Shown here in pieces: positions 3,784 through 38,509 of a stretch of DNA of 64,000 bases (position 1 is its first letter; each line of letters begins with the position of its first letter). The stretch is taken from contig OY282379.1 of the NCBI GenBank assembly GCA_958295875.1, positions 2,569,046-2,633,045 on the forward strand, written 5' to 3'. This stretch comes from an uncultured Pseudomonadales bacterium (lineage in GTDB: Bacteria > Pseudomonadota > Gammaproteobacteria > Pseudomonadales > Azotimanducaceae). The notes below the pieces were generated by a model. It had not been told where the DNA came from and searched no databases. It was given only the letters and a program-made list of their open reading frames with translations. A program made the position numbers and the translations under genes.

Positions 3784-3905
3784 GCCTTGTGCAGGCTCAG
3801 CCGGTGGCGCGCCCAAGGAAGCCCTTGGGCGCGGCCGTTCGGTAGCCTGCGAGTTGGGAAAGGAAGCCTCGTTTGGCGGTGGCTATGGCGGCGTTGCGAA
3901 AGCAC

Positions 3906-4649
3906 CTACAGCTTCATCCGCTTGAGTATCCGTTCGGGAACGGCGCGGACGAGCAGCATGATTAGGCGCCAGACGCGGCGTATGTAAACGACGTCGCGGC
4001 GCCGATGAATCGCTGTGAGCACCGCGGCGGCGACCTCTTCGGGCGTCGCGGTTAGCTGCGCCGGCAGGTTCATCCCATCGGTCATGCGGGTGCGCACGAA
4101 GCCCGGCTTGACCGTCACCACATGGACGCCCGAGGCGGCCAGCCGGCCGCGCAGGCCGGAGAGGAACGCGGTGAACCCGGCCTTGGCGGAGCCGTAGACG
4201 TAGTTCGTGGCTCGGCCCCGTTCGCCGGCCACCGAGCTGACGCCGACGAGGACGCCGCTGCCGCGCCGCTCGAAGCGCTCGGCCAGCGCCCCCATCAGCA
4301 GCGCGGGGCCAACATAGTTGGTGCGCATCACCCGCTCGGCGGCGCCGCCGTCCCGCTGGCTTTCCGCTTGGTTGCCGAGCAGCCCGACAACGCACACTGC
4401 CACGTCGGGCAGGGGGTCGAGCGCGTCGAGCAACGAGACGCCGCCGTCCTCATCGAGCACGTCGCACGGGTGAGCGGTCACGGCGACCGCCGTGCGCACC
4501 CCGAGGTCTCGCGTCTCTCTCTCCAGCCGCCCGGCGTCGCGGGCCGCGAGCTGCAGCGCGCAGCCGTCCTGCGCCAGCGCATGCGCGATGACGCGGCCGA
4601 TGTCCGAGGTGGCGCCGATCACCAACGCTGTTTTTGGCCTGTCGTTCAC
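3906..4649 (-). CDS. SDR family oxidoreductase, DprE2-like (decaprenylphospho-erythro-pentofuranosid-2-ulose 2-reductase-like by context)
   Basis: It has a TALVIGATSDIGRVIA Rossmann motif and an SDR YGSAK catalytic motif (YxxxK). It shares an operon with DprE1-like and UbiA-like genes. Its start abuts the stop of the upstream GT-C gene. Confidence 0.75.
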   Translation of the reverse strand: MNDRPKTALVIGATSDIGRVIAHALAQDGCALQLAARDAGRLERETRDLGVRTAVAVTAHPCDVLDEDGGVSLLDALDPLPDVAVCVVGLLGNQAESQRDGGAAERVMRTNYVGPALLMGALAERFERRGSGVLVGVSSVAGERGRATNYVYGSAKAGFTAFLSGLRGRLAASGVHVVTVKPGFVRTRMTDGMNLPAQLTATPEEVAAAVLTAIHRRRDVVYIRRVWRLIMLLVRAVPERILKRMKL

Positions 4650-7351: not shown

Positions 7352-7836
7352 AACGCGAGCCGCCGCGACAGTTCGGAGACGAACCTAGGATGGCCGCCAG
7401 CCGCCTCGGCGCGAACCGCCTCAAAGGCGCCGAGGCGGGGATAGCCTTCGCGCACCCGTTCCGGCGCGCAGTGGGCATCCTTGGCAAGATAGACGCGGCC
7501 GCCGTGGCGGTGGGTGATCTCGTCGAGGCCGTCGAGCAGCGTGGCGGTGCCGCTGCGCACCGGGAAGTCGAGCGCCAGCGTGTAGCCCTCCATGGGGAAC
7601 GACATCAGCCCATCCCCGGCGGGGCCGAATAGCTTGAGCACCGCCAGGAAGGAGCCTTGCCCCGACGCGGCGGCGCACTCAAGCAGGGCGGCCACGCCGG
7701 CCGCGCTCTCGCCTTTGGGCAGCACGCACTGGTACTGGACGAACCCCCGCCGCCCGTAGAGGCGGTTCCACGCCTCGATGCGGTCGAGGGGAAAGAAGAA
7801 GCGGTCGAAATGAACCGGCCGCGCCCCGGTGCGCAC
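7348..7836 (-). pseudogene. Truncated duplicate of DprE1-like FAD oxidoreductase (C-terminal 162 codons only)
   Basis: It differs from the last 162 aa of 12937..14274 at about 6 positions. The N-terminal FAD-binding two-thirds is absent. It keeps the same 4-nt overlap with the downstream GT-C start as the intact copy. Confidence 0.8.
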
Positions 7837-7887
7837 ACGTCTCCGCCCGCGCCGAAGTTCCTCCCGCGACCTGTTCGACCCCCACGT

Positions 7888-7971
7888 TCACAGTGCGGCT
7901 TTCCCATCATCCGCCAAGCCGCCAAGATCGAAGCCGCTCCTCCAAGTGTGATCCTCGCCGGGTGTGCGCCG
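7888..7971 (-). pseudogene. Relic of the 3-prime end of a VIRSDWDVYLVE-type repeat unit
   Basis: The translation RRTPGEDHTWRSGFDLGGLADDGKAAL-stop parallels the end of the 901-aa protein (TGQYAGERHIWEGRFNVVGPADDGKATQ-stop). Confidence 0.4.
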
Positions 7972-8006
7972 GTCAGCGCCGATTGCGCCGATAGAGCGAG
8001 AAGGCA

Positions 8007-10208: not shown

Positions 10209-10352
10209 CTACGCCTTCGCCTCGACGTCGATCTCGTCCCATGTCGCGCCTCGCCGCTTCGGCTCGCGGTCAGCACGATGGTCCTTGGCGTAGACGAGGC
10301 GGTCTTCGACGAGATACACATCCCAGTCGGAGCGGATGATCGCCGAGATAGA
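10209..10352 (-). pseudogene. Relic of the 5-prime part of a VIRSDWDVYLVE-type repeat unit
   Basis: The translation ...SAIIRSDWDVYLVEDRLVYAKD... then diverges. Its stop (10209..10211) directly abuts the ATG of the 733-aa gene. Confidence 0.4.
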
Positions 10353-10450
10353 CGCGCCCGCTGCGACGGGTGGGCATCTCGCCGAAGCCGTCGAGCGGCG
10401 GTGGTGCGGGAGAGCAAGCAGGTTGTTCACAACATGGGTGCCCGATGCCA

Positions 10451-12940
10451 CTACGGCTTCTCTGGCTGCTTGTCGAATAGCAGTCGCCGTGCCAGCATCA
10501 CATGGTCGAGCATGATGTGTCCCCATCCGCCAGTTTCATCGTCGAACAGTTCCAATTGCAGACGCTGGCCGGCGATCTCGTCTAGGGAGTAGACGACCCA
10601 ATTGAACCGTTCGGTGTTCTCGCCACGCCAAGTCGCGGCTTCGTCGCCGTCCGCCAACAGGCGCAACCCGACGCCGCCGCCCGCGCCGCCGGCTATCAGG
10701 AACACGAGATGCTGGCCAGACTCTGCGGTGAACGTGGGCGAGAGTGCTTGCCCCGTGGTTTGGTCTCCCTTGTCCGGATGGAAACTTGTCAGGAAGCCCC
10801 TGCCCGCATTGCCGCTGATCGGCTGCTGCCCTCTGTAGCGTTCATGTTGACCGTGATTCGTGATCGCTTCGCCTTCCAGAAGCCAGCCGTCGAAACCGTC
10901 TTCGAAACGCGCCAACACCTGCTCGCCGAGATAGAGATGGTCACCGTCAATGATGGTAGAGGGCGCGGGCGCCGGTGTGTGGGGAGTGACAATGTCGGCC
11001 GGCACCGTTCGGATCTGAATGGGAGGTCGGGCATGATTGGGCAATTCAAAAGCGTTCACGCAAAAGCCAAGATTGTTCTTGCTCGCGTCCTCCCACGGAT
11101 GCCAAAGGCGCGAAACCGTTTCGTCCTCGTCCAAATGGGAAAACACCAGAGGTTCGCCGTGCATTTCCGCCGTTGCGCAATCTCTGATGAACGCCTGTGC
11201 CATCTGTCCGTCCACAATCAGCCCCATGTCATCCGACTGGTAATCGAAGTGCGGTTCCATCCGCTGCCAGAACCAGTCGGAATGATTGAGCCCGCCTGAT
11301 GACGTCTCTGGTGGTTCGGCGGACCAGAGCTTGAATTGACGCTCGCCCGATTGGTATCGGTATGGCGGACCTTCGAACAGCGTGGCATCTTGGATCGTGT
11401 TGACATCAAGGACATTCGCGAAGTGGCTAATCCCCCACTGTGGATAAAGCGAGACCTCGGTTCTTTCCCGTCGGGCGCGCAAGTAGTCGTATGAGTTGAC
11501 CAAGCCGTCCAAGTTCACCACGGGAAGGCGCGAGAAGTACCCGATGACGCCGGCGCTCCACGACCCGACCACGCTGCCCTCGGGAAGCAGGCGATTCGTG
11601 ACCAGCGTGCCCATGTAAGAGGTCATCTCCCATTCGCGATTGTGCTCGGACAATCCACTCATCCCGTCAACAAACCGGAACGGATTGGCGAAGTCCGCCT
11701 TTGGGAAGAGGACGGCCGCGCCGGCAACGACAACGCCTAGGCTCAGGACATTGGCCGCGCGGCGCGACTTCGGCCCGATGAAACGGCGGATGAAGTGGAT
11801 GGCGACATAGCACCTCACGGGAATGGCAAGCGCCATCATCAGGTACGCCGGGACGAAGTACCAGTTGTTGTCCCCAAAAAAGGGATGCAAGGTCAGGGCG
11901 GTCTGCCCGAACTTGGCCAGATGGCCGACGGCCAAGCCGGACACGCCCGCCAGGAAGGCCAGCAGAAGCCAGTCCTCCCGGTTGCGGGACCGGCGGGCGA
12001 ACCACCAGACCAGCAGCAGATAGGCGCAAACCTCCAGCGCAACCAACAGTTCGAGGTCGAAGACATCGATCTGCAAGGTGTCTGAGAGGTTCTGCGTCAG
12101 GCTGTACCCGCCTTCCGATTCCCATCGCTGTTGCGACCAGAGTTGCTTGGTCGCGCCGCTCACCGGCACGATGCCGCCGAAGACGAGCCGGTTGTAGGCG
12201 AAGTACACGAGGACGCCGGCGCCGGCGGCGAGAAACGGGACGAGCGCCTTGGCGGAGAGCGCTGACCGGGCTCGCTCTCCGATTGGCGCGCCGGGCGCTC
12301 GCTCCTGCCTCCACCACTCGACGAGCCACAGCGCCGCTGTCGTGGCCAGTGATATGGCGATGTACTCCAAACGCACCCAAGGCAGGGCGAAGGCGACCGC
12401 GGCAAGCGGCCACTTCCACCGCGCCGGGCTTCGCGCGAAGAGGCAGGCGGCCAGGATGAACAGGCACAGCATGAACAGCGCCGCCGCCGCTTCCAGTCCA
12501 TGAAACAGCGAGTCCCGCTGGTAGAGCATCGGCAGGGCGGCGAACAGCAGATACCACGGCATGCGCGCCAGCCGGGCGGCCGCGGCGATGAGGGCCACGC
12601 CGCCGGCGACGAGCATCACCTCGAACGCCTTGATGGCGAACAGCGCCGCTTCCTTGTCGAATGCCCAGTAGAACGGCGTGATCAGAAACAGCCAGAGGGG
12701 GTGGTATCCGTTGGTGCGCGTGATGCCGCCATCGAAGGTGGAAAACTTTCCTTCGGCCAAGTTGAAGGCGATCTGAAGATAGTAGAACGAGTCGTCCCCG
12801 TTCACGCCGCGGATCAGGTCGATCAAGTCGAAGGAGCTGAGCATGTACCAAGCGAACCCGGCCCCGTAGGCCAAGATCCCCCCGATGAACAGGACGAACA
12901 GCGCGTTGCGCAGCGTGGTCAGCTTGGCCATGTCCCTCAC
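10451..12940 (-). CDS. GT-C-like polytopic membrane glycosyltransferase, paralog of 4646..7351, with C-terminal LamG/GH32-C-like module
   Basis: The N-terminal about 400 aa are nearly identical to the 901-aa protein (MRDM.KLTTLRNALFVLFIGG...). The C-terminal 151 aa are shared with the 733-aa protein. Confidence 0.8.
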   Translation of the reverse strand: MRDMAKLTTLRNALFVLFIGGILAYGAGFAWYMLSSFDLIDLIRGVNGDDSFYYLQIAFNLAEGKFSTFDGGITRTNGYHPLWLFLITPFYWAFDKEAALFAIKAFEVMLVAGGVALIAAAARLARMPWYLLFAALPMLYQRDSLFHGLEAAAALFMLCLFILAACLFARSPARWKWPLAAVAFALPWVRLEYIAISLATTAALWLVEWWRQERAPGAPIGERARSALSAKALVPFLAAGAGVLVYFAYNRLVFGGIVPVSGATKQLWSQQRWESEGGYSLTQNLSDTLQIDVFDLELLVALEVCAYLLLVWWFARRSRNREDWLLLAFLAGVSGLAVGHLAKFGQTALTLHPFFGDNNWYFVPAYLMMALAIPVRCYVAIHFIRRFIGPKSRRAANVLSLGVVVAGAAVLFPKADFANPFRFVDGMSGLSEHNREWEMTSYMGTLVTNRLLPEGSVVGSWSAGVIGYFSRLPVVNLDGLVNSYDYLRARRERTEVSLYPQWGISHFANVLDVNTIQDATLFEGPPYRYQSGERQFKLWSAEPPETSSGGLNHSDWFWQRMEPHFDYQSDDMGLIVDGQMAQAFIRDCATAEMHGEPLVFSHLDEDETVSRLWHPWEDASKNNLGFCVNAFELPNHARPPIQIRTVPADIVTPHTPAPAPSTIIDGDHLYLGEQVLARFEDGFDGWLLEGEAITNHGQHERYRGQQPISGNAGRGFLTSFHPDKGDQTTGQALSPTFTAESGQHLVFLIAGGAGGGVGLRLLADGDEAATWRGENTERFNWVVYSLDEIAGQRLQLELFDDETGGWGHIMLDHVMLARRLLFDKQPEKP

Positions 12941-24539: not shown

Positions 24540-25607
24540 ATGCAGGCCAGCGACGCGCCGTACAAGGTGCTGTTCCAAGACCGGCGCCTCTTCGAGGAGA
24601 CCGTGCGGCTGGTCGCCCCGCGGCTGGCCGACGGGCTGGACTTCGACGCCGCCGCGTCGCTGGACAAGGAGCACCTGACGGCGCTGGCGCGCACCCGCGT
24701 GCAGGACAAGCTGCGGCGCGTCGAGCGCAAGTCGGGGAAGCTGGCGAACGGCCGCCGCCGCTACGTCCTGGCGCTGCTCGAGTTCCAGTCCGGCCACGAC
24801 GCGGACATGGCTTGGCGGATGCGGGACTACCTGCACCTGGTGGAGTCCGGCCTGCGCCAGTCGGGCACGGCGCAGGCGGAGGGGGAGGTGCCGGGGATGC
24901 TGTCGGTCGTGGTCCACAACGGCGAGCGGCCGTGGCGGGCGTCGGCGGAGTGCGCGGGCCCGCTGACCGGCGACGCTGAGCCGGCGCAGGTGCGGATGTA
25001 TGCTACGGTGGACTTGCAGGTGCTGGCGCGGGGCGCGGACGGCGCGGGCCGGCGGCTGGTTCCGGGCGGCTGCCTGGCGACCTTGGCGGAGTTGGAGTCG
25101 TCGCCGGCGGAGGCTTTGCCGAAGCTGCTGCTGGAGGCGTTCCGGCGCCACGCTGGGGCGGGTTCGTCCGAGTTCCGCCGCGGGCTGCACCTGCGGGTGG
25201 AGTCCGCGCTGGAGCGGCGCGGTGCGGCGGCGGGCCTGCCGCCGCTGGCAGACTTCGAGCGGGCGCTCACGGAGAGAGGAGGAGAGCGGATGACGGCGAT
25301 GTTGGACGCGACGCTGGCGCGATGGGAAGAATCGAAGGTCGCGCAGGGCGTGGAGCGCGGTTTGGCTCAGGGCATTGAGCGTGGCCGGGCACAGGGGGTC
25401 GAGCGTGGCCTAGCCCAAGGGCGCGTGGCCCTGCTTGGGCGGATGGCGGAGCGGCGCTTCGGCGCGGGCGTGGCGGGCCAAGTGACGGCGCTGCTGGCGG
25501 ATGAGACGGACCTGTCGCGCCTGGACGAGGCCGGCGAATGGCTGCTCGAGTGCGACACTGGCGAGGCATTGCTCTCGCGGCTCGCAGGGCGCCCGCCACG
25601 CGGCTGA
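24540..25607 (+). CDS. Rpn family recombination-promoting nuclease / putative transposase (YhgA-like), paralog type 2, copy A
   Basis: MQASDAPYKVLFQDRRLFEETVRLVAP, LALLEFQSGHDADMAWRMRDYL and an 8-aa AQG[VI]ERG[LR] repeat are followed by ALLGRMAERRFG...GEALLSRL (DUF4351-like). Confidence 0.8.
   Translation: MQASDAPYKVLFQDRRLFEETVRLVAPRLADGLDFDAAASLDKEHLTALARTRVQDKLRRVERKSGKLANGRRRYVLALLEFQSGHDADMAWRMRDYLHLVESGLRQSGTAQAEGEVPGMLSVVVHNGERPWRASAECAGPLTGDAEPAQVRMYATVDLQVLARGADGAGRRLVPGGCLATLAELESSPAEALPKLLLEAFRRHAGAGSSEFRRGLHLRVESALERRGAAAGLPPLADFERALTERGGERMTAMLDATLARWEESKVAQGVERGLAQGIERGRAQGVERGLAQGRVALLGRMAERRFGAGVAGQVTALLADETDLSRLDEAGEWLLECDTGEALLSRLAGRPPRG
25277..25292 (+). promoter_or_regulatory. 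Internal in-frame RBS plus ATG inside Rpn gene
   Basis: AGGAGG at 25277..25282, a 7-nt spacer, then ATG at 25290, in frame (codon 251). It would give a 105-aa C-terminal protein, MTAMLDATLARW.... Confidence 0.5.
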
Positions 25608-25707
25608 CGGCAAGCGCGATGGCCTGCGCCTGTGCATGGAGTCCGCGCTGAAGCGTTGGGGCTTGGCAGCGGGACCGCGGGCGCTCGCGGAGAGAGGAGG
25701 AGAGCGG

Positions 25708-26061
25708 ATGACGGCGATGTTGGACGCGACGCTGGCGCGGTGGAAAGAAGCGGAGGTCGCGCAGGGACGGGCGCAGGGCATGGAACGGGGCCTTGCACAG
25801 GGCATTGAGCGTGGCCGGGCGCAAGGCATGGAACAAGGCTTGGCGCGAGGCGTGGAACGGGGCCTAGCCCAAGGGCGGGTGGCCCTGCTTGGCCGGATGG
25901 CGGAGCGGCGCTTCGGCGCGGGCGTGGCGGGCCGTGTGACGGCGCTGTTGGCGGACGAGACGGACCTGCCGCGCCTGGATGAGGCCGGCGAATGGCTGCT
26001 CGAGTGCGACACCGGCGAGGCGCTGCTCGCGCGGCTCGCAGGGCGTCAGCCACACGGCTGA
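25708..26061 (+). CDS. Stand-alone Rpn C-terminal (DUF4351-like) module, 117 aa
   Basis: AGGAGG at 25695..25700, a 7-nt spacer, then ATG at 25708. MTAMLDATLARWKEAEVAQG... duplicates the last about 105 aa of 24540..25607 but has more 8-aa repeats. Confidence 0.5.
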   Translation: MTAMLDATLARWKEAEVAQGRAQGMERGLAQGIERGRAQGMEQGLARGVERGLAQGRVALLGRMAERRFGAGVAGRVTALLADETDLPRLDEAGEWLLECDTGEALLARLAGRQPHG

Positions 26062-26145
26062 CGGCGAGCGCCAAAGTAGAGCTGTTGGCGCTTCAGGTCC
26101 CGCTTCGGGGGATCCGAACACTCTGCATGAGTCTAAACGGGTGCC

Positions 26146-29769: not shown

Positions 29770-29859
29770 TCACTTCCTTCCCGTTTACGATACCGTGCGA
29801 CGTCACCCGCCAAAGCCCCTGTTCTGGTTCAGATAGATATGGCACTGCGCCAGCCGATG

Positions 29860-31043
29860 GCGGGGTGAGGTGGCGCTGGCGACGGGAACCCGCCGCCAGC
29901 GCCGGATCGGGTAGCCTCAGTGAATGCGAAGTCACTGGTGGAGACCCGAGCCATGCGAATCGAATCGATGCGGATCAGATCGTACCGCAGTTTCAGGGTG
30001 GACGACGCCGAACTGCCGGCCGAGGCCCGCGGGCGCCTGTCGGCGATCCGCCGGTTCGATGGGCTGCGCGCCGCCGGCTGCGCCGAGCGCGCCGCCTTGA
30101 GGGAGGTCGGCGTCAGCCGCCGCACCCTGTATCGGTGGAAGGCCGCGCTGGCCGCCGGCGGCCAGCGCGGCCTCGCGCCGAAGTCCACCCGACCGCGCCG
30201 CGTCCGCCGCCCGGCGCGCAAGCCGGGCGACGTGAAGGCGGTCATGGCCATGCGCCGCAAGCACCCGTTCATGGGCAAGGCGCCCATCCAGCGCATGCTC
30301 GAACGCCAAGGCCTGCGGCTGAGCGCGTCAACCGTCGGGCGCATCCTCTCGCGCGCCATCGCGGACGGGACCGTGCCCCCCGCCAGCCTCTGCGAAGGAC
30401 GGGCCAAGCCCAAGCGCCCCCGCAAGTTCAACGGCTGGGCGCGGCGCTGGAAATACGGCGACAAGGCCGAGCGCCCGGGCCAGCTCGTCCAGATCGACCA
30501 CATGACCGTCTCCCGCGACGGCAGCTCCATCAAGGAGTTCCGCGCCATCTGCCCCGTCAGCCGGTTCATGGTCGCCCGCGCCTTCTCCCGCGCCACCGCC
30601 GCCACCGCAGCGCGCTTCCTCGCCGTCGTCGCCGAAGCCCTCCCCGTGCCGCTGGAGTCCGTCCAGGTCGACGGCGGCAGCGAGTTCATGGCCGGCTTCG
30701 AGGACGCCTGCAGGAACCTCGGCGTCGCGCTGCGCGTCCTGCCGCCGCGACGGCCGCAGTGGAACGGCTGCGTCGAGCGCGCCAACCGCACCGCCCGCAT
30801 CGAGTTCTGGAACCTCCTCGACTGCGACCTCACCGTCGAGGCCGTCTCCGAGAGGCTCCTCAAGCGCGAGTTCTTCTACAACTACATCCGACCGCACTCC
30901 GCAATCGACTACCGATCCCCCAACGAGTACCTTGTCGCCCACGAGGCTGCCCAGCCTCAGTGCCAGATGTCATGAACCGGTTCAGCCCCTTGACCTCGCG
31001 GGAGCCTTGGCGCTAGGTTGCGGTCGGCCAATTGGACTCACAG
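29860..31043 (+). mobile_element. IS481-family insertion sequence (boundaries tentative)
   Basis: It carries a single transposase ORF. Weak terminal inverted similarity exists (GGTGAGG... at the left, ...ACTCACAG at the right). A possible 5-bp direct repeat CGATG lies at 29855..29859 and 31044..31048. Confidence 0.4.
29920..30975 (+). CDS. IS481-family transposase (DDE integrase core)
   Basis: HTH region: VGVSRRTLYRWKAALAAGGQRGLAPKSTRP. DDE core: LVQIDHMTV, VQVDGGSEFM, RPQWNGCVERANRT. Confidence 0.85.
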   Translation: MNAKSLVETRAMRIESMRIRSYRSFRVDDAELPAEARGRLSAIRRFDGLRAAGCAERAALREVGVSRRTLYRWKAALAAGGQRGLAPKSTRPRRVRRPARKPGDVKAVMAMRRKHPFMGKAPIQRMLERQGLRLSASTVGRILSRAIADGTVPPASLCEGRAKPKRPRKFNGWARRWKYGDKAERPGQLVQIDHMTVSRDGSSIKEFRAICPVSRFMVARAFSRATAATAARFLAVVAEALPVPLESVQVDGGSEFMAGFEDACRNLGVALRVLPPRRPQWNGCVERANRTARIEFWNLLDCDLTVEAVSERLLKREFFYNYIRPHSAIDYRSPNEYLVAHEAAQPQCQMS

Positions 31044-31045
31044 CG

Positions 31046-32392
31046 ATGCCAGATAGCCAGCTAGATTGGCGGAAGCTCCTCTGCTCGACGCGGCGGAAGG
31101 AGATCGCACGAAAACGACACTGCGGTCAAGCCGCATCCGCCGGCACCCACGTCTGCGCCGAAGAGATTGAGCACGATTACGACAGGATCCTTTCCTCGAC
31201 CTCAACGCGTCGGCTGGCTGACAAGACGCAACTCTTCCCTCCTGACACGAATCGCTCTATTAGTACCCGTTTAACGCACTCGCTCGAGGTCAGCAACTTA
31301 GCCCGCAGCATCGGCGTTCGGCTTGCCCATGATCATCGCCACGACGTGTTTGGCGAGCTTGCCGACAAGCTGCAAGCGGAACGAACGGTTCCCGCGTTGC
31401 TAGCTGCCGCGGGCCTTGCACACGACCTCGGCACTCCACCTTTCGGCCATCCAGGCGAAAAGGCCATTCGCCTGTGGTGCAAGACCCGCGGCATCAAACT
31501 CAAGGATTTTGCCGAGTTCGACAGCAATTGCCAGACGTTCCGCCTCCTGACGCGCCTTCAGATCCTTGACGGCAATTTCGGCCTAGACCTGACGTGCGCC
31601 ACGCTCGCCACGTCGCTCAAGTACCCAGCCTTCTCCAACGACCTAAGTGGCTTCAAGAAGTTCGGGATTTTTGAACGCGAGCGCAACATAGCTCACGAAG
31701 TATGGGATCAAACCGGCCTCGCCGAGGGGGTGCGGCACCCTTTGGCCTACATCGTGGAAGCATGCGACGACATTGCTTACTCCGTAATGGACGTCGAAGA
31801 CATCGTAAGAATGGGCTACGCATCCTGCAACAACGTAATGGATTTCCTTGCGCAAAGTTCAGATGCCAAGACTAAAGCCGTGAGGAAAAGAACCCTAAAT
31901 GAGTGTAAGGTGTTTGCAAGTAAGAAGAGCCAGCGGCATTTGGATGAGCAATCTATGCTGGTGTTTAGGACCATTTCCATTTCTGAGATGATAGAATCGA
32001 TTACTAGAACGTTCGTTTCCCATATCGATCAGATACTCAAGGGAGAAGTAGATGGCGAATACAAGCTCGTTCCAAAATCCGACGTTGCGGAACTCTGTTG
32101 CCGGCTTAAGAAGTTTGGTAGACGTAGAGGATTCGAGCATCGAGATATATGTCAGCGGGCGATGAAGGACAAGAAGCAGGTCAGAGAAACGATGGATTAC
32201 CTCTGGTGTGGCATCGCGAATCCGGATCGAGGTAGCGCTTATTCGCGCCTGCCTGAGATTGACCGTCGAGCGTACGAAGTGACCTCTCGTTCTTGGTCCG
32301 ACAAGTTGCACCTGCTATGCGACACCGTTGCGAGCATGACGAATAGCGAACTGATCTCTTTACGCGACGACCTCAAAGGCATTCTGCAGTAG
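31046..32392 (+). CDS. dGTPase-family HD-domain deoxynucleoside triphosphate triphosphohydrolase-like protein
   Basis: LDWRKLLCSTRRKE is a Dgt-type N-terminus. RLTHSLEVSNLARSIG and GLAHDLGTPPFGHPGE are HD motifs, and ACDDIAYSVMDVED is also present. The GC content is visibly lower than the flanks. Confidence 0.8.
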   Translation: MPDSQLDWRKLLCSTRRKEIARKRHCGQAASAGTHVCAEEIEHDYDRILSSTSTRRLADKTQLFPPDTNRSISTRLTHSLEVSNLARSIGVRLAHDHRHDVFGELADKLQAERTVPALLAAAGLAHDLGTPPFGHPGEKAIRLWCKTRGIKLKDFAEFDSNCQTFRLLTRLQILDGNFGLDLTCATLATSLKYPAFSNDLSGFKKFGIFERERNIAHEVWDQTGLAEGVRHPLAYIVEACDDIAYSVMDVEDIVRMGYASCNNVMDFLAQSSDAKTKAVRKRTLNECKVFASKKSQRHLDEQSMLVFRTISISEMIESITRTFVSHIDQILKGEVDGEYKLVPKSDVAELCCRLKKFGRRRGFEHRDICQRAMKDKKQVRETMDYLWCGIANPDRGSAYSRLPEIDRRAYEVTSRSWSDKLHLLCDTVASMTNSELISLRDDLKGILQ

Positions 32393-32419
32393 TAGCACGT
32401 CTTGATCGCAACGAGCGTA

Positions 32420-33343
32420 TCAGGAGATCTCGCCAAGAGAGTTGCCCAAAAGAAACACTAGTACGAGTACCACCGGCAAAATAGTCCATCTCCCCCAAAT
32501 GGCATCGCGCAAAACAAGCATTAGGGCGGAAGTAGAGAGTGCGAGTGATAGAGCAATTGCCCCAATTCGGACCCAAGCGCTTAACTCAGGAATGGACTGT
32601 AGGGCATCACTTTCACGACCGACCAAAACAGCAAACAAGACTCCGAGCAATGTAATGACGAGCGTAGAGAAGTAGACCGCTTGTGACCTAACATCGTCCA
32701 CTGCCTTTGCTACTTGTTTAGCGCGTTGCTCTACTTTCGTAACCCTTTCCCCGTATTGAGACAATGCGGACTCATGTGCGCCATGGGGAGCGACGCTTTC
32801 GATGTCCCGTGGGGGTAATGATTCAAAAGGCTCGCATTGAGAGGCGGTGTAAGGAGTGCTCTTTACGAAGTCGATCAGCGCAAGCTTATCGCCCCTCTTG
32901 AGCTTTACGGATCTTCTAGAGAGATTGTAAATGGGACACGCCAGCTTCCCGATGTATCCGGGGTCAACCTGCGCTGCCCCCACCCACAGCAGCCCCTTGT
33001 ATGCTAGCTTAACCTTGATGTTCCACCTTGCAATCATGAACCTAGGGATGCAGAGATGTTCTAGAGTCTCTATAACGACTACCTCGTAGGGTTCGATTTC
33101 GAAAGTGTCAGCGTCTTGCAGTTCCTCCTTTTGCAAACCGCGGAAGTAACGATCTCCAACCCGCATCTGGTAGCCAGCTGGCTCAAGGCTGTCCCTAGAG
33201 AAGGGATGTATCATGCAATGGCTGTCGACGTAGCATTCTATCCGATTGCTGAGCAGCACGCCGTATTCGGACGGATAGGGGTCATATTCTAAGGTACGGA
33301 GGTCGACCTTAGATACGCTATTCGGGCGGACTGCGGCCATCAT
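32420..33343 (-). CDS. dCTP deaminase / dUTPase-fold protein with C-terminal coiled-coil and three TM helices
   Basis: The Dcd-like core is LLSNRIECYV...IHPF...LEPAGYQMRVG...IEPYEVVVIETLE...VDPGYIGKLACPIYN...LKRGDKLALIDF. The C-terminal TM segments are AVYFSTLVITLLGVLFAVLVG, WVRIGAIALSLALSTSALMLVL and WTILPVVLVLVFLLG. Confidence 0.7.
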   Translation of the reverse strand: MMAAVRPNSVSKVDLRTLEYDPYPSEYGVLLSNRIECYVDSHCMIHPFSRDSLEPAGYQMRVGDRYFRGLQKEELQDADTFEIEPYEVVVIETLEHLCIPRFMIARWNIKVKLAYKGLLWVGAAQVDPGYIGKLACPIYNLSRRSVKLKRGDKLALIDFVKSTPYTASQCEPFESLPPRDIESVAPHGAHESALSQYGERVTKVEQRAKQVAKAVDDVRSQAVYFSTLVITLLGVLFAVLVGRESDALQSIPELSAWVRIGAIALSLALSTSALMLVLRDAIWGRWTILPVVLVLVFLLGNSLGEIS

Positions 33344-34441
33344 TCAGACTCCAGTTAGGCTCGTCGTTTGCAGCAGTGAACGGTCATGTCTGCGTGTGTT
33401 GTTAGCGTCAATGCTCGTGCGCGTATCGAAATCTGAACGTGGCACCAGCTTGGTGGGTGACGTTCCGACCCAATCGAATGTCCTCCCGATGCTCGCTTCA
33501 AACGAGGCGACAGTGACTTCCCACGACGGGGGCAGGGTAGTGGCGGCGGCCGTCTGATCAAAGTAGTCTACATGATTAAGCACTAGGTGGGTCGCGCCGT
33601 TGGCGTCAATAGCCTCCTTAACGATGGCTGGATCGAATCGTGCCACGCGGCGGACGCACTTGGTCACCGATGAAAGCTCGGATAGGTGCGCGCGACCACA
33701 ATTGATGCCGATAGTGCGCCAGTCGGTCTCGAATGGCAGCGGGCCGGAGTTGCCGCTCACTCGGATCGGGAAGGCCCGCGCAACGAGGACAATGCAGTCA
33801 ACCTCAACAGGGCTAAGTCCGGCTTCGGCGACGAACGCGGCGGCAGTGGTATTGCGGCTCGTAACGTAGGGGTAATGGCTCGATAGAAGGTTGGAGAGCC
33901 CGAAGCCTTGTGTGCCCTCGATTAGAACACGCTCTCCGCGATCCAAGGCGGCCCGGATCAGCGGGCGGGTGGGCCGAACGAAACGGGCGATATAGCTATC
34001 GTCGGAAGCCCAATGCACGGCGTTGGAACGTGAGACTCGATCCATTACTGCTGCGCCCGTGCCGCTAGCGGTCGATCCGATCCGAGCCCTAAGCGCTGAG
34101 CTTCTCTCCTTGCTCTTATGCTCGTCGGTGATGACCATCGCACGTGGATCTATCACCAGCCTGTCTCGAGGGAGGTCGATGCGCTCCACGTCTTGCCGCA
34201 GCGCTTCGGCGTCAATGTAGGAGCCGGGGCCGAGCACGCATAGGGTATCTTGAAGGAGCGCGGCTGTTGGGAGGTGGCGGAAAACATGCCGGCGACCATC
34301 GCTGCCGTAGGCCGTATGGCCAGAGTTTGAGCCGCCCACGCGGATAACAATCGTGGCCTGTTGGTGCTGCGCCAAGAACAGCGCGACCTTGCCCTTGCCC
34401 TCAGAGCCAAACTGGGCGCCGGCTACCACGGTTACGGGCAT
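33344..34441 (-). CDS. Adenylosuccinate synthetase (PurA) family protein, divergent, PurZ-like active-site substitutions
   Basis: By-eye alignment to E. coli PurA gives these matches: FGSEGKGK vs PurA GDEGKGK; GGSNSGHT vs GGHNAGHT; IGSTASGTG vs IGTTGRGIG; EGTQGFGL...YPYVTS vs EGAQG...YPYVTS. ATG at 34441 overlaps the upstream stop by 10 nt. Its stop abuts the next ATG. Confidence 0.75.
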   Translation of the reverse strand: MPVTVVAGAQFGSEGKGKVALFLAQHQQATIVIRVGGSNSGHTAYGSDGRRHVFRHLPTAALLQDTLCVLGPGSYIDAEALRQDVERIDLPRDRLVIDPRAMVITDEHKSKERSSALRARIGSTASGTGAAVMDRVSRSNAVHWASDDSYIARFVRPTRPLIRAALDRGERVLIEGTQGFGLSNLLSSHYPYVTSRNTTAAAFVAEAGLSPVEVDCIVLVARAFPIRVSGNSGPLPFETDWRTIGINCGRAHLSELSSVTKCVRRVARFDPAIVKEAIDANGATHLVLNHVDYFDQTAAATTLPPSWEVTVASFEASIGRTFDWVGTSPTKLVPRSDFDTRTSIDANNTRRHDRSLLQTTSLTGV

Positions 34442-36552
34442 TGGCCGTCTCTGCGAAGATGTGTCGTCACGATCTCGTCGCAGACACAAAGAGCGTGATG
34501 TTCTCCCTCGTTAGGGAGGATTTGATCCGCTAGCTGCCGCAGCTTTTCGACCCCCTGCTCAACATCATGGTGGCTTGTGTCGTCGAAGTCGGCATGAGGC
34601 CCGTTTCGCTGAACAAACCGCTGTCGTCGGACATCGGCGGACACATCAAGATGGACATGGGTGAACGCTGGGCCATAGCGCTCTAGCCAGAAAGCGCGGT
34701 CTTCCGGCCATCGCAGGCCATCCACAACGAACATCTGCCTGCTGTCGCCGTAACGGGCAAGCAGCTGGCGGTTGAGCCATCGTTGCCCTAACTCAACGTG
34801 GATACTCTGGCCGACCTCTTGGAGCGTCTGCCTAGTAGTGCCCCTGCCTTGCCTCACTGCCTCGTCTGCCACCACTTGGCTATAGCGACCATAAGTGAGG
34901 CCCCGCTTCTCCAACCCATGTGCGACGGTTGTCTTGCCCGAAGAAATCGGGCCACTGACGCCGACTACGAGCCGGCCGTGCCACTGCGTCTCCCGGCCCT
35001 CGTCGGAAACTCTCGGAATGATCAAGTAGTCTTCATCCTCGTTCCCTAGCGCCTCAAATCGGCCTGACCAGAAGAACAGCCCAACAATGGCGGACGTGAT
35101 GGCATCGAGCTCGTCGTGTTTGGGGTTGGCGTCCGGTGAAACCGAGCGTCCTTCAAGGCCAAAGCGGCGGAGACCCTCCTTCAATTGCACAAGGCTCGCC
35201 CGTTTTCGCGGGATGTCCATGATGTCTTGGGCGGCGCCGGGATAACTCTCTATCACCGGGATGCCCAAAGCCCGGATTTTGGCCGCTAAGCCCATGCCAC
35301 GATCAGTGAGTTTTTGCATGCTGGGGATCAAGCAGGGGTACACGTTGATGCCCCGGCGTTTCAACATACGCTCACACACCCGCATGATGCCAAATTCGGC
35401 GCGACCGGGGTCGTCGTCATCAACACGGATGCGGCCTCGCGGCAGCGAAAGTGGCGAGTCGATCGACACGAGCTGGGGTTTGATGGCGGCTATGGCCTCT
35501 AGCATCTCCGCGTCCGTTCTAACCATGCGCGTTTCGACGCGGCGGCCCTTGAGCTCGCACCATCCGGATGGTCGGTGCTCCGAGCCGGTGAGGTCGATGC
35601 CGATCACAGTAATGGCATCACCACGAATGTAGTCCACTAAGTCCTCGTAGGTCGCCTTGGGGCCAGTTCGGCCTCGGAACTGCGGCACGTCAATGACGTT
35701 GATGCCTTTGGCGCCACGCTTGAAACATACCGACGCCCTAGCAGACGCGAATGGAGCGGGCGGATTAAGTCGCTGATTCTCGCCGAGGCGCCGGATGGTC
35801 TCGTCGAGGATGGCCTTCATGCCTTCCACATCTGAATGGTTGTATTGGACCAAATCGTGGCCAGCGCGTAAGTCGCCATTCCTGTACTCGTACCAGAGCC
35901 GCACGGCATCCGCACCAGTGGCATCGCTGATTTGCTCGGGACGTTCAAAGCGCAACTCGCGCTCGATCTTCTTTTGGCCGCCCTTCAATTGCGCCCGCCG
36001 GGCGAAGTAGCGTAGGTCAACATGTGCGCGAGGCAGGTTTGCGCCGCTTTCTAGCCTCGCCAGAAACTTCAAATCGAAAGCTGTGCCGTTAAACGTAACG
36101 AGACACTTGGCGTCGTTCAACAGATCATGCCAGACGCCTGCGGACGTATCTGGGAACCAACAGGCGTAGCGCTTGCCCCTCGATAGGCCGATCAGCGTGA
36201 TTTCGTCGTAGTAGAGGCTCAGGCCGGTCGTCTCGATGTCCAAGAACACGGTGTCGTCTGGGAAGGTTGTGGCTATTCTGTAGTGCTCTCGAGATGGGAG
36301 CCTAGCGGCGAAGTAGTCCGCGTCCTTGTCGGAGAGCGCATATCGGGAAGCTTCGATGGCAGCCAAGCAGTCGTCGCGAGCGGGAGCGAACAGATCGGCT
36401 GGCGGCCGGCGGGCTTCTTCGAGATCAGACCAAGTTAGGATGCCCTCTCCCCACAAGCGCCTCTCCGTGCGCAGGCCGATCCTAGGGAGGTGGATGAACG
36501 TATGTTCGAGCGGGCAGCGGTTCAACTCCACGTCATCCTCGTCTTGCCCCAA
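34432..36552 (-). CDS. Three-domain fusion: YprB-like RNase H-fold 3-5 exonuclease, DUF429-like RNase H-fold domain, and P-loop nucleotide kinase-like domain
   Basis: Exonuclease domain: VFLDIETTGLSLYYDEITLIG, LVTFNGTAFDLKFL and YNHSDVEGM (DEDD-like). DUF429-like domain: VIGIDLTGSE...HDELDAITSAIVG. Kinase-like domain: VVGVSGPISSGKTTVA...VVDGLRWPED. The start is TTG at 36552. Confidence 0.75.
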   Translation of the reverse strand: MGQDEDDVELNRCPLEHTFIHLPRIGLRTERRLWGEGILTWSDLEEARRPPADLFAPARDDCLAAIEASRYALSDKDADYFAARLPSREHYRIATTFPDDTVFLDIETTGLSLYYDEITLIGLSRGKRYACWFPDTSAGVWHDLLNDAKCLVTFNGTAFDLKFLARLESGANLPRAHVDLRYFARRAQLKGGQKKIERELRFERPEQISDATGADAVRLWYEYRNGDLRAGHDLVQYNHSDVEGMKAILDETIRRLGENQRLNPPAPFASARASVCFKRGAKGINVIDVPQFRGRTGPKATYEDLVDYIRGDAITVIGIDLTGSEHRPSGWCELKGRRVETRMVRTDAEMLEAIAAIKPQLVSIDSPLSLPRGRIRVDDDDPGRAEFGIMRVCERMLKRRGINVYPCLIPSMQKLTDRGMGLAAKIRALGIPVIESYPGAAQDIMDIPRKRASLVQLKEGLRRFGLEGRSVSPDANPKHDELDAITSAIVGLFFWSGRFEALGNEDEDYLIIPRVSDEGRETQWHGRLVVGVSGPISSGKTTVAHGLEKRGLTYGRYSQVVADEAVRQGRGTTRQTLQEVGQSIHVELGQRWLNRQLLARYGDSRQMFVVDGLRWPEDRAFWLERYGPAFTHVHLDVSADVRRQRFVQRNGPHADFDDTSHHDVEQGVEKLRQLADQILPNEGEHHALCVCDEIVTTHLRRDGQCP

Positions 36553-36637
36553 AGGATGCCTCGTTCCGTTGTTGCACCATTTGTATCACGTTGATGCTGA
36601 TGAACGCAGCTCCGCAACGAAGCGGACGACCAGAAGT

Positions 36638-36727
36638 TGGCGGAGAGGCAGGGATTCGAACCCTGGGTGCCCAAAGGACACACCTGATTTCGAGTCAGGC
36701 CCGTTCGACCAACTCCGGCACCTCTCC
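36638..36727 (-). tRNA. tRNA-Ser (anticodon CGA), CCA encoded
   Basis: A 90-nt cloverleaf was folded by hand. Acceptor: GGAGAGG/CCTCTCC. Anticodon arm: CCTGA-CTCGAAA-TCAGG. Long variable arm: GTGTCC-TTT-GGGCAC. T arm: CAGGG-TTCGAAT-CCCTG. Confidence 0.9.
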
Positions 36728-36967
36728 GAGGCGCATTCTGCGCCAAGCTGCCACATGAGCGCAACGAGCCAGCGATGGGGGGCGGGGGCGAAGCGGGGTG
36801 GCGTCCGTGGGCGTGGGTATGGATCACGGAGGCCGGTCCGCTGCCTTGGCATGGCAGATGTCTTTGATTTGCGTGAGACATCCGCCCGGCGTGGCGTTTG
36901 AGCGGGAATTGGCCCGCCGGATGGCGCACAGTTGGCACCCCCGCAACCCCGACGACGCCCGAACCCG

Positions 36968-38119
36968 ATGCAGGCCAGCGACGCGCCGTACAAGGTGCTG
37001 TTCCAAGACCGGCGCCTCTTCGAGGAGACCGTGCGGCTCGTCGCCCCGCGGCTGGCCGACGGGCTGGACTTCGGCGCCGCCGCGTCGCTGGACAAGGAGC
37101 ACCTGACGGCGCTGTCGCGCACCCGCGTGCAGGACAAGCTGCGGCGCGTCGAGCGCAAGTCGGGGAAACTGGCGAACGGCCGCCGCCGCTACGTCCTGGC
37201 GCTGCTCGAGTTCCAGTCCGGCCACGACGCGGACATGGCTTGGCGGATGCGGGACTACCTGCACCTGGTGGAGTCCGGGCTGCGGCAGTCGGGCACGGCG
37301 CGGGCGGAGGGGGAGGTGCCGGGGATGCTGTCGGTCGTGGTCCACAACGGCGAGCGGCCGTGGCGGGCGTCGGCGGAGTGCGCCGGCCCGCTGACCGGCG
37401 ACGCTGAGCCGGCGCAGGTGCGGATGTATGCTACGGTGGACTTGCAGGTGCTGGCGCGGGGCGCGGACGGCGCGGGCCGGCGGCTGGTTCCGGGCGGCTG
37501 CCTGGCGACCTTGGCGGAGTTGGAGTCGTCGCCGGCGGAGGCCTTGCCGAAGCTGCTGCTGGAGGCGTTCCGGCGCCACGCTGGGGCGGGTTCGTCGGAG
37601 TTCCGCCGCGGGCTGCACCTGCGGGTGGAGTCCGCGCTGGAGCGGCGCGGTGTGGCGGCGGGCCTGCCGTCGCTGGCAGATTTCGAGCGGGCGCTCACGG
37701 AGAGAGGAGGAGAGCGGATGACGGCGATGTTGGACGCGACGCTGGCGCGGTGGAAAGAAGCAGAGGTCGCGCAGGGCGTGGAGCGGGGCTTGGCTCAGGG
37801 CATTGAGCGCGGCCGGGCGCAAGGCATGGAACAAGGCTTGGAGCGCGGTTTGGCCCAAGGCGTGGAGCGCGGTTTGGCTCAGGGCATTGAGCGTGGTCGG
37901 GCACAGGGCGTTGAGCGTGGCCTAGCCCAAGGGCGCGTGGCCCTGCTTGGGCGGATGGCCGAGCGGCGCTTCGGCGCGGGCGTGGCGGGCCGTGTGGCGG
38001 CGCTGTTGGCGGACGAGACGGACCTGTCGCGCTTGGACGAGGCCGGCGAATGGCTGCTCGAGTGCGAGACTGGCGAAGCGCTGCTCGTGCGGCTCCGAGG
38101 GCGTCCGCCCCAAGGCTGA
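36968..38119 (+). CDS. Rpn family recombination-promoting nuclease / putative transposase (YhgA-like), paralog type 2, copy B
   Basis: It is near-identical to 24540..25607 over the first 250 codons, then carries a longer AQG[VIM]E[RQ]G[LR] repeat tract before the DUF4351-like end. Confidence 0.8.
   Translation: MQASDAPYKVLFQDRRLFEETVRLVAPRLADGLDFGAAASLDKEHLTALSRTRVQDKLRRVERKSGKLANGRRRYVLALLEFQSGHDADMAWRMRDYLHLVESGLRQSGTARAEGEVPGMLSVVVHNGERPWRASAECAGPLTGDAEPAQVRMYATVDLQVLARGADGAGRRLVPGGCLATLAELESSPAEALPKLLLEAFRRHAGAGSSEFRRGLHLRVESALERRGVAAGLPSLADFERALTERGGERMTAMLDATLARWKEAEVAQGVERGLAQGIERGRAQGMEQGLERGLAQGVERGLAQGIERGRAQGVERGLAQGRVALLGRMAERRFGAGVAGRVAALLADETDLSRLDEAGEWLLECETGEALLVRLRGRPPQG
37705..37720 (+). 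promoter_or_regulatory. Internal in-frame RBS plus ATG inside Rpn gene
   Basis: AGGAGG at 37705..37710, a 7-nt spacer, then ATG at 37718, in frame (codon 251). Confidence 0.5.
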
Positions 38120-38215
38120 CGGCAAGCGCCATGGCCTGCGCCTGGAGTCCGCGCTGAAGCGTGGGGCTTGGCAGCGGGGCTACCGCGGGCGCTCGCGGAG
38201 AGAGGAGAAGAGCGG

Positions 38216-38509
38216 ATGACGGCGATGTTGGACGCGACGCTGGCGCGATGGAAAGAAGCGGAGGTCGCGCGGGGCGTGGAGCGTGGCTTGGCCCAGGGCG
38301 TTGAGCGTGGCCTAGCCCAAGGGCGCGTGGCCCTGCTTGGCCGGATGGCGGAGCGGCGCTTCGGCGCGGGCGTGGCGGGCCGTGTGACGGCGCTGTTGGC
38401 GGACGAGACGGACCTGTCGCGCTTGGACGAGGCCGGCGAGTGGCTGCTTGAGTGCGACACTGGCGAAGCGCTGCTTGCGCGGCTCGGAGGGCCTCCACCG
38501 TGCGGCTGA
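38216..38509 (+). CDS. Stand-alone Rpn C-terminal (DUF4351-like) module, 97 aa
   Basis: AGGAGA at 38203..38208, a 7-nt spacer, then ATG at 38216. It encodes MTAMLDATLARWKEAEVARG...LLGRMAERRFG...GEALLARL. Confidence 0.5.
   Translation: MTAMLDATLARWKEAEVARGVERGLAQGVERGLAQGRVALLGRMAERRFGAGVAGRVTALLADETDLSRLDEAGEWLLECDTGEALLARLGGPPPCG

Follow-up and report, generated by a model that had tools for sequence, protein, structure and literature searches.

Published descriptions of PurZ chemistry, by which 2-aminoadenine (Z) stands in DNA where adenine otherwise would, have so far come from phages; a few similar archaeal sequences have been mentioned as potential ancestors. Sequences called 'archaeal PurZ-like' were reportedly pointed out by Tong et al. 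in 2023. Here we describe a cellular operon whose central enzyme belongs to the same clade. It lies in a stretch of 64,000 nucleotides from an uncultured Pseudomonadales bacterium of the Azotimanducaceae (assembly GCA_958295875.1, contig OY282379.1, positions 2,569,046 to 2,633,045 of the forward strand), which we call the window. Three genes on the minus strand encode a fusion of nuclease and kinase domains (gene 1), a PurA-like enzyme (gene 2) and a membrane protein with the dUTPase/Dcd fold (gene 3), and a dGTPase gene runs convergently towards them (Table 1). We suggest, as a possibility rather than a probability, that the operon is an undescribed conflict system in which deoxyguanosine monophosphate (dGMP) derived from DNA is turned into nucleotides of the 2-aminoadenine pathway, these being sensed by a membrane or AAA+ output protein. 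Such a system would most likely be directed against phages.

In phages the enzymes of the pathway are encoded in Z-clusters of two kinds, PurZ0-DutZ-DmtZ and PurZ-DatZ-MazZ. PurZ0 is always accompanied by the Dut-like protein DutZ, and PurZ by the HD enzyme DatZ (PMC12884076). Host PurB converts the PurZ product towards dZMP (PMC12884076; PMC8342488), and a Z-cluster expressed in Escherichia coli is toxic, with Z entering the DNA (PMC8342488). The synthetases carry a recognizable signature. Asp13 is 99% conserved in PurA, each of the 147 phage PurZ and PurZ0 sequences examined has serine there, and four archaeal sequences with Ser or Gly at this position form the base of the PurZ/PurZ0 clade (PMC12884076). 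Arg303 in the GRRR loop of PurA contacts the 2′-OH of IMP and the aspartate; in PurZ the displaced equivalent of this arginine and a deformed Val273 loop exclude ribonucleotides (PMC8342488). Ser13, R303 and the V273 loop are tied to specificity for dGMP and for deoxynucleotides (PMC8342488; PMC12884076).

Gene 2 has this signature. An earlier reading of the window, made from the letters alone and here called the sequence-only reading, had described a PurA-family protein with altered catalytic residues and had drawn the parallel with the phage PurZ/DatZ/MazZ set, and on both counts it was right. The protein matches the Pfam adenylosuccinate synthetase family (PF00709) at 2e-48 and lies below the NCBIfam cutoffs for PurA (245 against 368 bits for the archaeal short PurA model PRK04293, and 184 against 396 for TIGR00184) as well as for amino_Aden_PurZ (239 against 300), so that its scores for the archaeal short PurA and PurZ models are nearly equal. 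We aligned 68 operon-linked PurA-like sequences with PurA of E. coli and Pyrococcus horikoshii, PurZ0 of the Gordonia phage Archimedes and PurZ of the Vibrio phage JSF33. The position of Asp13 is serine in 63 of 66 family members and glycine in the other three, the archaeal sequence of locus L064 among them, and the P-loop of the window protein reads GSEGKGK where PurA has GDEGKGK. Further substitutions are W11 to Phe or Tyr, T128 to Ser, T271 to Ile and G298 to Thr. R303 is not conserved (Lys, Arg, Thr, Asn or Ala), and the GRRR aspartate loop has become K[KR][LVI]R. After V273 there is an insertion of the PurZ0 type, PIRV[AGS]G[ND]SG, and a TTVTKxxRRV loop is also present. Conserved throughout are K16, N38, H41, R143, Q224 and R305, together with D333, which specifies GTP. 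The combination of Ser13, the substitutions and the V273 insertion is common to PurZ0 of the phages Archimedes, Sapo and Nubia and to PurZ of JSF33. The best phage matches of the window protein are PurZ0 proteins, at no more than 41% identity.

In a neighbour-joining tree 99 of 100 bootstraps unite the cellular family with PurZ and PurZ0, apart from the P. horikoshii and bacterial PurA proteins. Inside this clade the tree gives no firm branching order, and the cellular family, which equals PurZ and PurZ0 combined in diversity, does not fall inside them. By these sequence characters gene 2 is a PurZ-clade enzyme, like PurZ and PurZ0 in signature and clade and short of the curated PurZ score. 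Its predicted reaction is that of dGMP, aspartate and GTP to give N6-succino-2-amino-dAMP. The Pfam match, and the fact that archaeal short PurA is the top PDB match by score, might instead suggest an ordinary second copy of PurA beside unrelated nucleotide genes. That is vanishingly improbable, for the catalytic Asp13 that true PurA conserves (PMC12884076) is replaced in every member, the scores lie below all the NCBIfam PurA cutoffs, and the genes keep a fixed order across phyla with overlapping reading frames; a housekeeping paralogue of PurA was rejected on the scores and on Asp13. Archaeal short PurA, such as that of P. horikoshii (PDB 2D7U/5K7X), has the short build of about 340-370 amino acids in common with the family, yet as a true enzyme it retains Asp13 and the GRRR loop. 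The archaeal PurZ-like sequences have the same pattern of Ser or Gly at position 13 (PMC12884076); the operon family differs in being mostly bacterial and embedded in an operon, a context that we did not find described.

Gene 1 encodes a protein of four parts. Its more than 2790 homologues are conserved over the full length, and a profile search of 1.84 billion representative proteins returned 933 clusters (50% identity) at E<=1e-30. Pfam matches are to RNase_H_2 (7.5e-27), DUF429 (4.6e-5) and AAA_33/CoaE, and the AlphaFold model has a predicted local distance difference test (pLDDT) value of 86 and a predicted TM-score (pTM) of 0.82. Residue conservation was judged on an alignment of 26 diverse homologues. 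The N-terminal region is conserved in this alignment and helical in the model; Pfam gives no match to a helix-hairpin-helix (HhH) there, the label being a reading of the motif, and the region is presumed to bind DNA. In the exonuclease domain D105, E107, N155, D160 and D241 are invariant, as are Y237 and N238 of a YNHxD motif, and Foldseek matches it to NrnC and to the editing domains of PolB enzymes. The invariant residues of DUF429 are D320, D365, H479, D480, E481 and D483. This domain belongs to the RuvC/YqgF clade of the RNase H-like superfamily and is known in fusions with NUDIX or RelA/SpoT (PMC3985635). A PDB sequence search with DUF429 found no relative, and in a Foldseek search with the whole model the kinase and exonuclease matches dominated. 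In the kinase the invariant positions are G534, G539, K540 and T541 of Walker A and the motif D611-G612-x-R614. Its best Foldseek match is a Sulfolobus adenylate-kinase-related protein bound to AMP (target TM-score 0.86), and the homologous kinase of locus L060 matches Pfam ADK at 1e-11. All the active sites of the fusion protein look catalytically competent. Profile searches agree with the YprB-like exonuclease, DUF429 and P-loop kinase of the sequence-only reading, the last being more exactly a nucleoside monophosphate (NMP) kinase of the adenylate kinase type.

A stand-alone DUF429, 52% identical to the domain in the fusion protein, is found in a plasmid of Dyadobacter chenhuakuii (L105, 4459-6621). 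Its gene follows immediately on that of a diadenylate cyclase equipped with DACNG and DACNH sensor domains, a hint that nucleases of the DUF429 kind are paired with enzymes that make nucleotide signals.

Gene 3 matches Pfam DCD (PF22769) at 1e-14, and scores 61 against a cutoff of 93 with the dCTP deaminase model TIGR02274. In its model (pLDDT 84) a β-barrel is followed by a helix of 54 residues and two further helices, and a hydropathy scan and the model both place three hydrophobic helices at residues 220-300. Every member of the family joins the fold domain to hydrophobic helices, either one or three. The closest structural relatives in Foldseek are archaeal dUTPases, with a TM-score of 0.86 for that of Thermococcus. 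The active site is altered. In E. coli Dcd numbering Glu138 is proline in 63 of 64 family members, Ser111 is Ile or Val, and Arg115 is His or Tyr. Since Glu138 and Ser111 are absent gene 3 is not a deaminase, and with the third catalytic residue, Arg115, replaced as well, a functional dCTP deaminase was ruled out. The dUTPase motif II (RSS) is replaced by [KRQ][IV]x, while the fold and the motif III aspartate D128 (VDPG[FY]) are kept. Thus of the dCTP-deaminase/dUTPase fold with three transmembrane helices proposed earlier, the fold and the helices stand and the deaminase residues do not. Comparison with the Dut-like proteins of a PurZ0 phage revealed a generic similarity of fold only.

How might these proteins act together? 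The gene 1 protein would hold DNA ends by its HhH-like region, its DEDDh and RuvC-like DUF429 nucleases degrading the DNA to deoxynucleoside monophosphates. The PurZ-type enzyme could then join dGMP to aspartate at the expense of GTP, giving N6-succino-2-amino-dAMP, from which host PurB might make dZMP, and the fused NMP kinase would lift the product to the diphosphate level. A deoxynucleoside kinase (dNK), where present, may feed in deoxyguanosine (dG), or a dGTPase may reshape the dG pool. Gene 3 would be the output. Neither the deaminase residues nor motif II, which binds phosphate, is left in it, but the deoxynucleotide pocket would be kept. It is presumably a trimer like the dUTPases, and might bind the unusual deoxynucleotide and perturb the membrane, whereupon the infected cell would arrest or die. 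In other genomes an AAA+ ATPase would take over this output role. The sequence-only reading had offered two interpretations, abortive infection and a pathway to a non-canonical purine, and these may be one mechanism.

The same enzymes could also defend the cell without any signal. Once activated, the nucleases, the kinases and the PurZ-like enzyme would together drain nucleotides of dG to dSMP and dZ nucleotides, so that phage DNA synthesis is starved or poisoned. Gene 3 would be either an enzyme like DutZ or MazZ, yielding the monophosphate from dGTP or dATP, or else a regulator or anchor at the membrane, and the dGTPase or dNK would tune the flux. The gene set does parallel the phage Z-clusters (PurZ0 with DutZ, PurZ with DatZ), whose toxicity in E. 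coli is accompanied by Z in the DNA (PMC8342488); the accessory genes work on the pool of deoxynucleosides or of dGTP, the NMP kinase has its motifs intact, and the dUTPase fold still carries its motif III aspartate. Yet motif II, Glu138 and Ser111 have been lost in nearly all gene 3 proteins, whose likeness to the phage Dut-like protein is generic, and neither the membrane helices nor the replacement by an AAA+ ATPase is explained. We consider pool conversion of this kind unlikely.

How general is the operon? We scanned one genome per species (185,579 species representatives) for relatives of the fusion protein and found at least 435 loci. Synteny was counted in the best 80 of these by searching six-frame open reading frames (ORFs). 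The PurA-like gene is present in 62 of the 80, nearly always directly downstream of the fusion gene, and in 56 of these 62 it is accompanied by the DCD-fold membrane protein; two loci of the 80 have an AAA+ ATPase of about 700 amino acids in the place of the latter. Of the 18 loci without a PurA-like gene, seven are cut by the end of a contig and the rest are distant relatives that lack the kinase. Homologues of the PurA-like and fusion proteins co-occur on the same contigs, and the trio is also found in loci L002-L004, L098-L100, L102 and L103. The third gene varies from locus to locus between a three-helix form, a one-helix form and the AAA+ ATPase. The order of the genes is fixed across phyla, with overlapping reading frames. 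In the window the stop codon of the fusion gene (TAA, 34432-34434) lies within a 10-nucleotide overlap with the PurA-like gene, whose ATG is at 34441, and the stop of the latter (TGA, 33344-33346) abuts the ATG of gene 3 at 33343. These are the junctions on which a tightly coupled minus-strand operon had been proposed, and elsewhere that operon is strongly co-conserved. The fusion and membrane protein genes do keep company with the PurA-like gene, as had been put up for checking; the four-gene synteny proposed with them does not extend so far.

The operon is horizontally mobile. Its spread is patchy, over at least 12 bacterial phyla and five archaeal orders. The bacterial hosts include Proteobacteria, Desulfobacterota, Acidobacteriota, Nitrospirota, Bacteroidota, Bacillota, Verrucomicrobiota, Chloroflexota, Actinomycetota, NC10 and Latescibacterota, and the archaeal hosts include Archaeoglobaceae and Thermoplasmatales. 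Among cultured carriers are Devosia sp. Root635, Lacibacter sp. MH-610, Rhizobium wenxiniae DSM 100734, Mariprofundus erugo P3 and Methylobacterium mesophilicum R14E, and these make the operon open to experiment now. The fusion protein has no match in 50,697 phage genomes, and in 2.9 million viral contigs it gave one weak match, to the exonuclease domain; from these collections the operon is essentially absent. Apparently pseudogenized copies were found in L011, L046, L048 and L053.

In two of these, both from Nitrospiraceae (L046, 11571-12692, and L048, 11571-12949), the PurZ-like protein is reduced to about its first 50 residues. In L048 the stub is fused to a NUDIX-like domain and followed by a zinc-ribbon-PilZ protein. 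Both copies look decayed or rearranged.

Recurrent neighbours of the operon are type I and type IIG restriction-modification genes, RmuC, integrases, transposases and IrrE/HTH proteins. DUF1156/DUF499 with a methylase occurs at one locus, and TIR, McrBC and DruA at another. These surroundings bear on whether the operon has an immune function at all. It might be an accessory pathway for salvage of deoxynucleotides, or for making or using 2-aminoadenine or related purine deoxynucleotides, which could serve to recycle DNA taken up or damaged at the membrane, to modify or repair DNA in patches, or to make a nucleoside metabolite. Every part is an enzyme of nucleic acids or nucleotides and the core has no domain known to be specific to defence; the exonuclease can give way to a repair-type PolX-PHP module, some loci have metabolic genes all around them, and in two archaeal contigs the nuclease gene adjoins a PurB-like lyase. 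Such a pathway is hard to reconcile with the sparse and patchy distribution, at least 435 of 185,579 species representatives. Nor does it account for islands of atypical composition with insertion sequence (IS) elements, tRNA genes and integrases, for the recurrence of restriction-modification, McrBC, TIR and Druantia genes as neighbours, for a third gene that is exchangeable, as is typical of conflict systems, or for the pseudogenized copies, which suggest rapid turnover. We hold a non-immune role to be improbable.

Several observations nevertheless weigh against a signalling defence that works through 2-aminoadenine nucleotides. To our knowledge no signalling defence is as elaborate as one that needs a nuclease, a synthetase and a kinase, and possibly PurB of the host. 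As accessories, dNK and dGTPase would suit bulk conversion of the pool as well as or better than signalling. Gene 3 could still be an enzyme, given its motif III aspartate, and the dGMP specificity of gene 2 is predicted from signature residues. The tree that places gene 2 is a neighbour-joining one with few outgroups, a single archaeal PurA among them, and the defence role itself is deduced from genes and their comparison. Several loci are small insertions among metabolic genes with no recognizable defence neighbour. About 10% of neighbours are PADLOC-positive, a rate that has no baseline, so the association with defence is suggestive and not proven. PADLOC-DB v2.0.0 matched neither gene 2 nor gene 3, and gave only weak partial matches for gene 1: the kinase part of the dCTPase model (1.5e-8), PDC-S44 (2e-8) and DEDDh (3e-4). 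The main text of PMC10250203 does not mention PDC-S44. A PADLOC run had been proposed as a check, and it left the operon unrecognized while recognizing the neighbouring dGTPase. Searches of the literature on adenylosuccinate, PurZ, PurA-like proteins or DUF429 together with defence turned up no description of the operon; the sole related remark that they brought to light is one sentence of a preprint, cited below. We rate the trio an undescribed system.

In chemistry the nearest relative of the operon is the phage Z pathway. The central enzyme is of the same clade, with the signature, the TTVT(K/N)xxRR loop and the D333 of the GTP-using PurZ0; there is likewise a partner of dUTPase fold and, in the window, an HD dNTP triphosphohydrolase. 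In contrast to the Z-clusters the operon is cellular, is absent from viral collections and has no Z-specific polymerase. Its partners are not orthologues of the phage proteins: the HD protein is of the Dgt type and restricted to one lineage, the dUTPase-fold protein is anchored in the membrane and motif II is gone from it, phages have nothing that corresponds to the nuclease-DUF429-kinase protein, and the third gene can be an AAA+ ATPase.

In logic the nearest relatives are the nucleotide-based defences. Tal et al. reportedly described an anti-phage dGTPase and an anti-phage dCTP deaminase that act by nucleotide depletion. The operon would have the targeting of nucleotide pools in common with these, the HD gene of the window matches the PADLOC dGTPase model, and the kinase of the fusion protein bears a weak likeness to that of the defence dCTP deaminase. 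Those defences are single genes. The conserved operon can do without the dGTPase; the defence dCTP deaminase is zinc-dependent and of another fold family, and the DCD-fold protein of the operon has no deaminase residues. Kongming signals with dITP, and in CBASS, Pycsar and Panoptes/Panoptoo small nucleotides gate the membrane effectors. Their logic resembles that of the operon, an enzyme that converts nucleotides being combined with an exchangeable and often membrane-spanning output, and in Kongming deoxynucleotide kinases are involved as they are here. Unlike these systems the operon has no cyclase, TIR, SIR2 or SAVED/CARF, and a ligase of the PurA family would make its presumed signal, a purine deoxynucleotide of the N6-succino or 2-amino kind. 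A preprint (10.64898/2026.01.15.699771) reports that N6-modified dAMP can trigger immunity, and in one sentence links PUA-calcineurin genes to a 'synthesis of modified bases' operon with adenylosuccinate synthetase.

A related arrangement is found in locus L104, on the conjugative plasmid pRLN3 of Rhizobium leguminosarum (2546-10760). A P-loop kinase of the same kind is fused directly to a PurZ-like domain of the Ser type in a protein of 533 amino acids, which ties this type of kinase to the pathway of the synthetase. A DUF7002 protein comes next, and the other neighbours are an adenosine-deaminase protein of 844 amino acids, possibly resembling RdrB of RADAR, and a PUA-like-calcineurin phosphoesterase, as in PUA-like-calcineurin(-HAD) systems. 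This locus differs from the operon of the window in having neither the exonuclease-DUF429 protein nor the dUTPase-fold membrane protein, and it may be a second, different PurZ-like conflict operon.

A wider proposal, which we regard as somewhat unlikely, is that cells have a PurZ-type pathway of their own, making N6-succino-2-amino-dAMP and/or Z deoxynucleotides from DNA-derived dGMP for immunity. The product would be either a second messenger of a new kind, read by a trimeric dUTPase-fold pore or an AAA+ protein, or a poison of replication, and phage PurZ0 and PurZ would descend from this cassette or have an ancestor in common with it. What is plain is that the operon gives a large and diverse PurZ-clade family a cellular home, in at least 435 species and essentially not in viruses. 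The origin of Z-genomes would become directly testable. If it is a defence the operon would add a new enzyme chemistry to immunity, a purine C6 ligase acting on dGMP, and possibly a new type of effector, the dUTPase fold joined to membrane helices. If it is not, some cells would still make or handle nucleotides of the Z pathway.

The dGTPase gene is not part of the conserved core. A Dgt-like HD protein had been called here, and the profiles agree: it scores 247 bits with TIGR01353, above the cutoff of 152, and 1.2e-65 with the PADLOC dGTPase model; with the antiphage_dGTPase model NF041026 it reaches 167 bits against a cutoff of 400. Among the loci examined the gene stands beside the trio only in the source genome and its sister assembly L001, in L006, where it is fragmented, and in L102. 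The L102 protein is 69% identical and its gene has the same convergent position in another chromosomal neighbourhood, with an integrase nearby. The four-gene unit thus occurs in two different chromosomal contexts. Locus L103, whose fusion protein is 75% identical, has no dGTPase gene, and neither has any of the more distant loci examined. The four genes therefore move together only within the closest clade, and the dGTPase is a lineage-specific accessory. The four-gene module of the sequence-only reading is accordingly reduced to a conserved trio, and as a universal module it was rejected. In L006 (14127-15481) the dGTPase homologue lies beside a 96%-identical copy of the operon and is split into three ORFs, either as a pseudogene or through frameshift errors in a long-read metagenome assembly. 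Other lineages fill the slot with a dNK gene (PF01712), present in 21 of the best 80 loci and nearly always directly after the DCD-fold gene. Six loci, the two AAA+ ATPase variants among them, have beside the system a protein of about 240 amino acids with no Pfam match (for example L005, 6078-6770; L013, 8190-8882; L036, 6036-6761; L037, 13856-14590), which may be a further accessory.

The fusion protein also has architectural variants. In proteins of 920-1006 amino acids a PolX module (HHH_8 and thumb) with PHP replaces the HhH and DEDDh exonuclease before DUF429 and the kinase. The one such locus recovered, L101 (Table 1), also has a PurZ-like gene of the Ser type, a dNK gene and an AAA+ ATPase. 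In two archaeal loci (L052, 4351-7537, and L053, 536-3925) a kinase-less exonuclease-DUF429 gene adjoins one for a PurB-like adenylosuccinate lyase; the PurZ-like gene in between is absent from L052 and cut to 127 amino acids in L053. As proof of a complete Z pathway the PurB-like gene was dropped, the PurZ-like gene being truncated or missing and the lyase possibly a housekeeping purB.

Table 1. Positions of the operon, its protein domains and the adjoining features in the window; the last row refers to positions in locus L101.
Feature	Position	Strand	Basis
IS element, 1163 bp, with rve-type transposase ORF 29920-30975	29821..30983	+	ORF list; sister-assembly comparison
Dgt-type HD dNTP triphosphohydrolase, 448 aa, convergent with the operon	31046..32392	+	PADLOC, NCBIfam
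Gene 3, 307 aa, dUTPase/Dcd-fold domain and membrane helices	32420..33343	-	Pfam, model, hydropathy
Gene 3, long helix and three hydrophobic helices, residues 193-306	32426-32767	-	hydropathy scan and model
Gene 3, fold domain, β-barrel, about residues 20-165	32849-33286	-	model, Pfam
Gene 2, 365 aa, PurZ-clade adenylosuccinate-synthetase homologue	33344..34441	-	profiles, alignment, tree
Gene 1, 706 aa, HhH-like N-terminus, DEDDh 3'-5' exonuclease, DUF429 and NMP kinase	34432..36552	-	Pfam, alignment, model
Gene 1, P-loop NMP kinase, adenylate-kinase-like, residues 527-700	34453..34974	-	alignment, Foldseek
Gene 1, DUF429, RuvC-like RNase H fold, residues 313-515	35008..35616	-	Pfam, alignment
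Gene 1, DEDDh exonuclease, PolB-exonuclease/YprB type (PF13482), residues 98-257	35782..36261	-	alignment, Foldseek
Gene 1, HhH-like region, helical, residues 1-97, motif LPxIGxRTExxLWxxGIxTWxDL	36262..36552	-	motif reading, model
tRNA-Ser(CGA)	36638..36727	-	ARAGORN; Rfam tRNA match 58 bits
L101, PolX-PHP variant locus, proteins P0463, P0469, P0474, P0486	882-3899, 3903-4613, 4610-6925, 6687-7823	+, +, -, -	

In the window the four genes lie where the sequence-only reading had put them, in a block of foreign composition. Their G+C content is 0.571 against 0.665 and 0.676 in the flanks, and at third codon positions it is 0.57-0.69 against 0.81-0.82 in the flanking genes; since both are low the block is compositionally foreign. 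A low-GC island had been called from hand counts of 29/60 and 48/60, which are exact on recount, and the wider profile bears it out. The island had also been said to abut tRNA-Ser(CGA), and it does start 85 nucleotides past the 3′ end of that tRNA, which lies upstream of the start of the operon. A search for a direct repeat of the tRNA 3′ end as a border of the island found none. When the locus was searched for riboswitches and other RNA elements the tRNA was the sole find, and scans for promoters and terminators were uninformative.

A PurZ-clade enzyme beside an HD triphosphohydrolase and a dUTPase-fold protein, in an island abutting a tRNA gene, is also what might be left by a prophage with a Z-genome, or by a phage Z-cluster captured by the chromosome. 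The ORF listing of the island shows no structural, polymerase or integrase genes, in agreement with the earlier remark that phage structural genes and a polymerase are missing. Moreover phages have no homologue of the fusion protein, viral contigs lack the operon, the HD protein with its 448 amino acids is of the Dgt type and not a small DatZ, and the cellular family matches PurZ and PurZ0 in diversity without being nested inside them. An origin of this kind is very improbable, and a prophage remnant was rejected for the lack of phage genes in the island and of any viral occurrence of the fusion protein.

The surroundings of IS and Rpn elements noted earlier are indeed present, the 1163-bp IS and Rpn-like genes flanking the block. 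The IS lies at the edge of the island between a GST gene and the dGTPase gene. The sister assembly L001, from the same organism and 99.4-99.9% identical on both sides, lacks it, and at the junction there is a 7-bp overlap, which suggests a target-site duplication. Rpn/Transposase_31-like genes are found on both sides of the island in several diverged copies (36932-38119, about 38168-38509 and about 25000-26100), and contain tandem repeats of 12 and 24 nucleotides that encode peptide repeats of the GLAQGVERG type.

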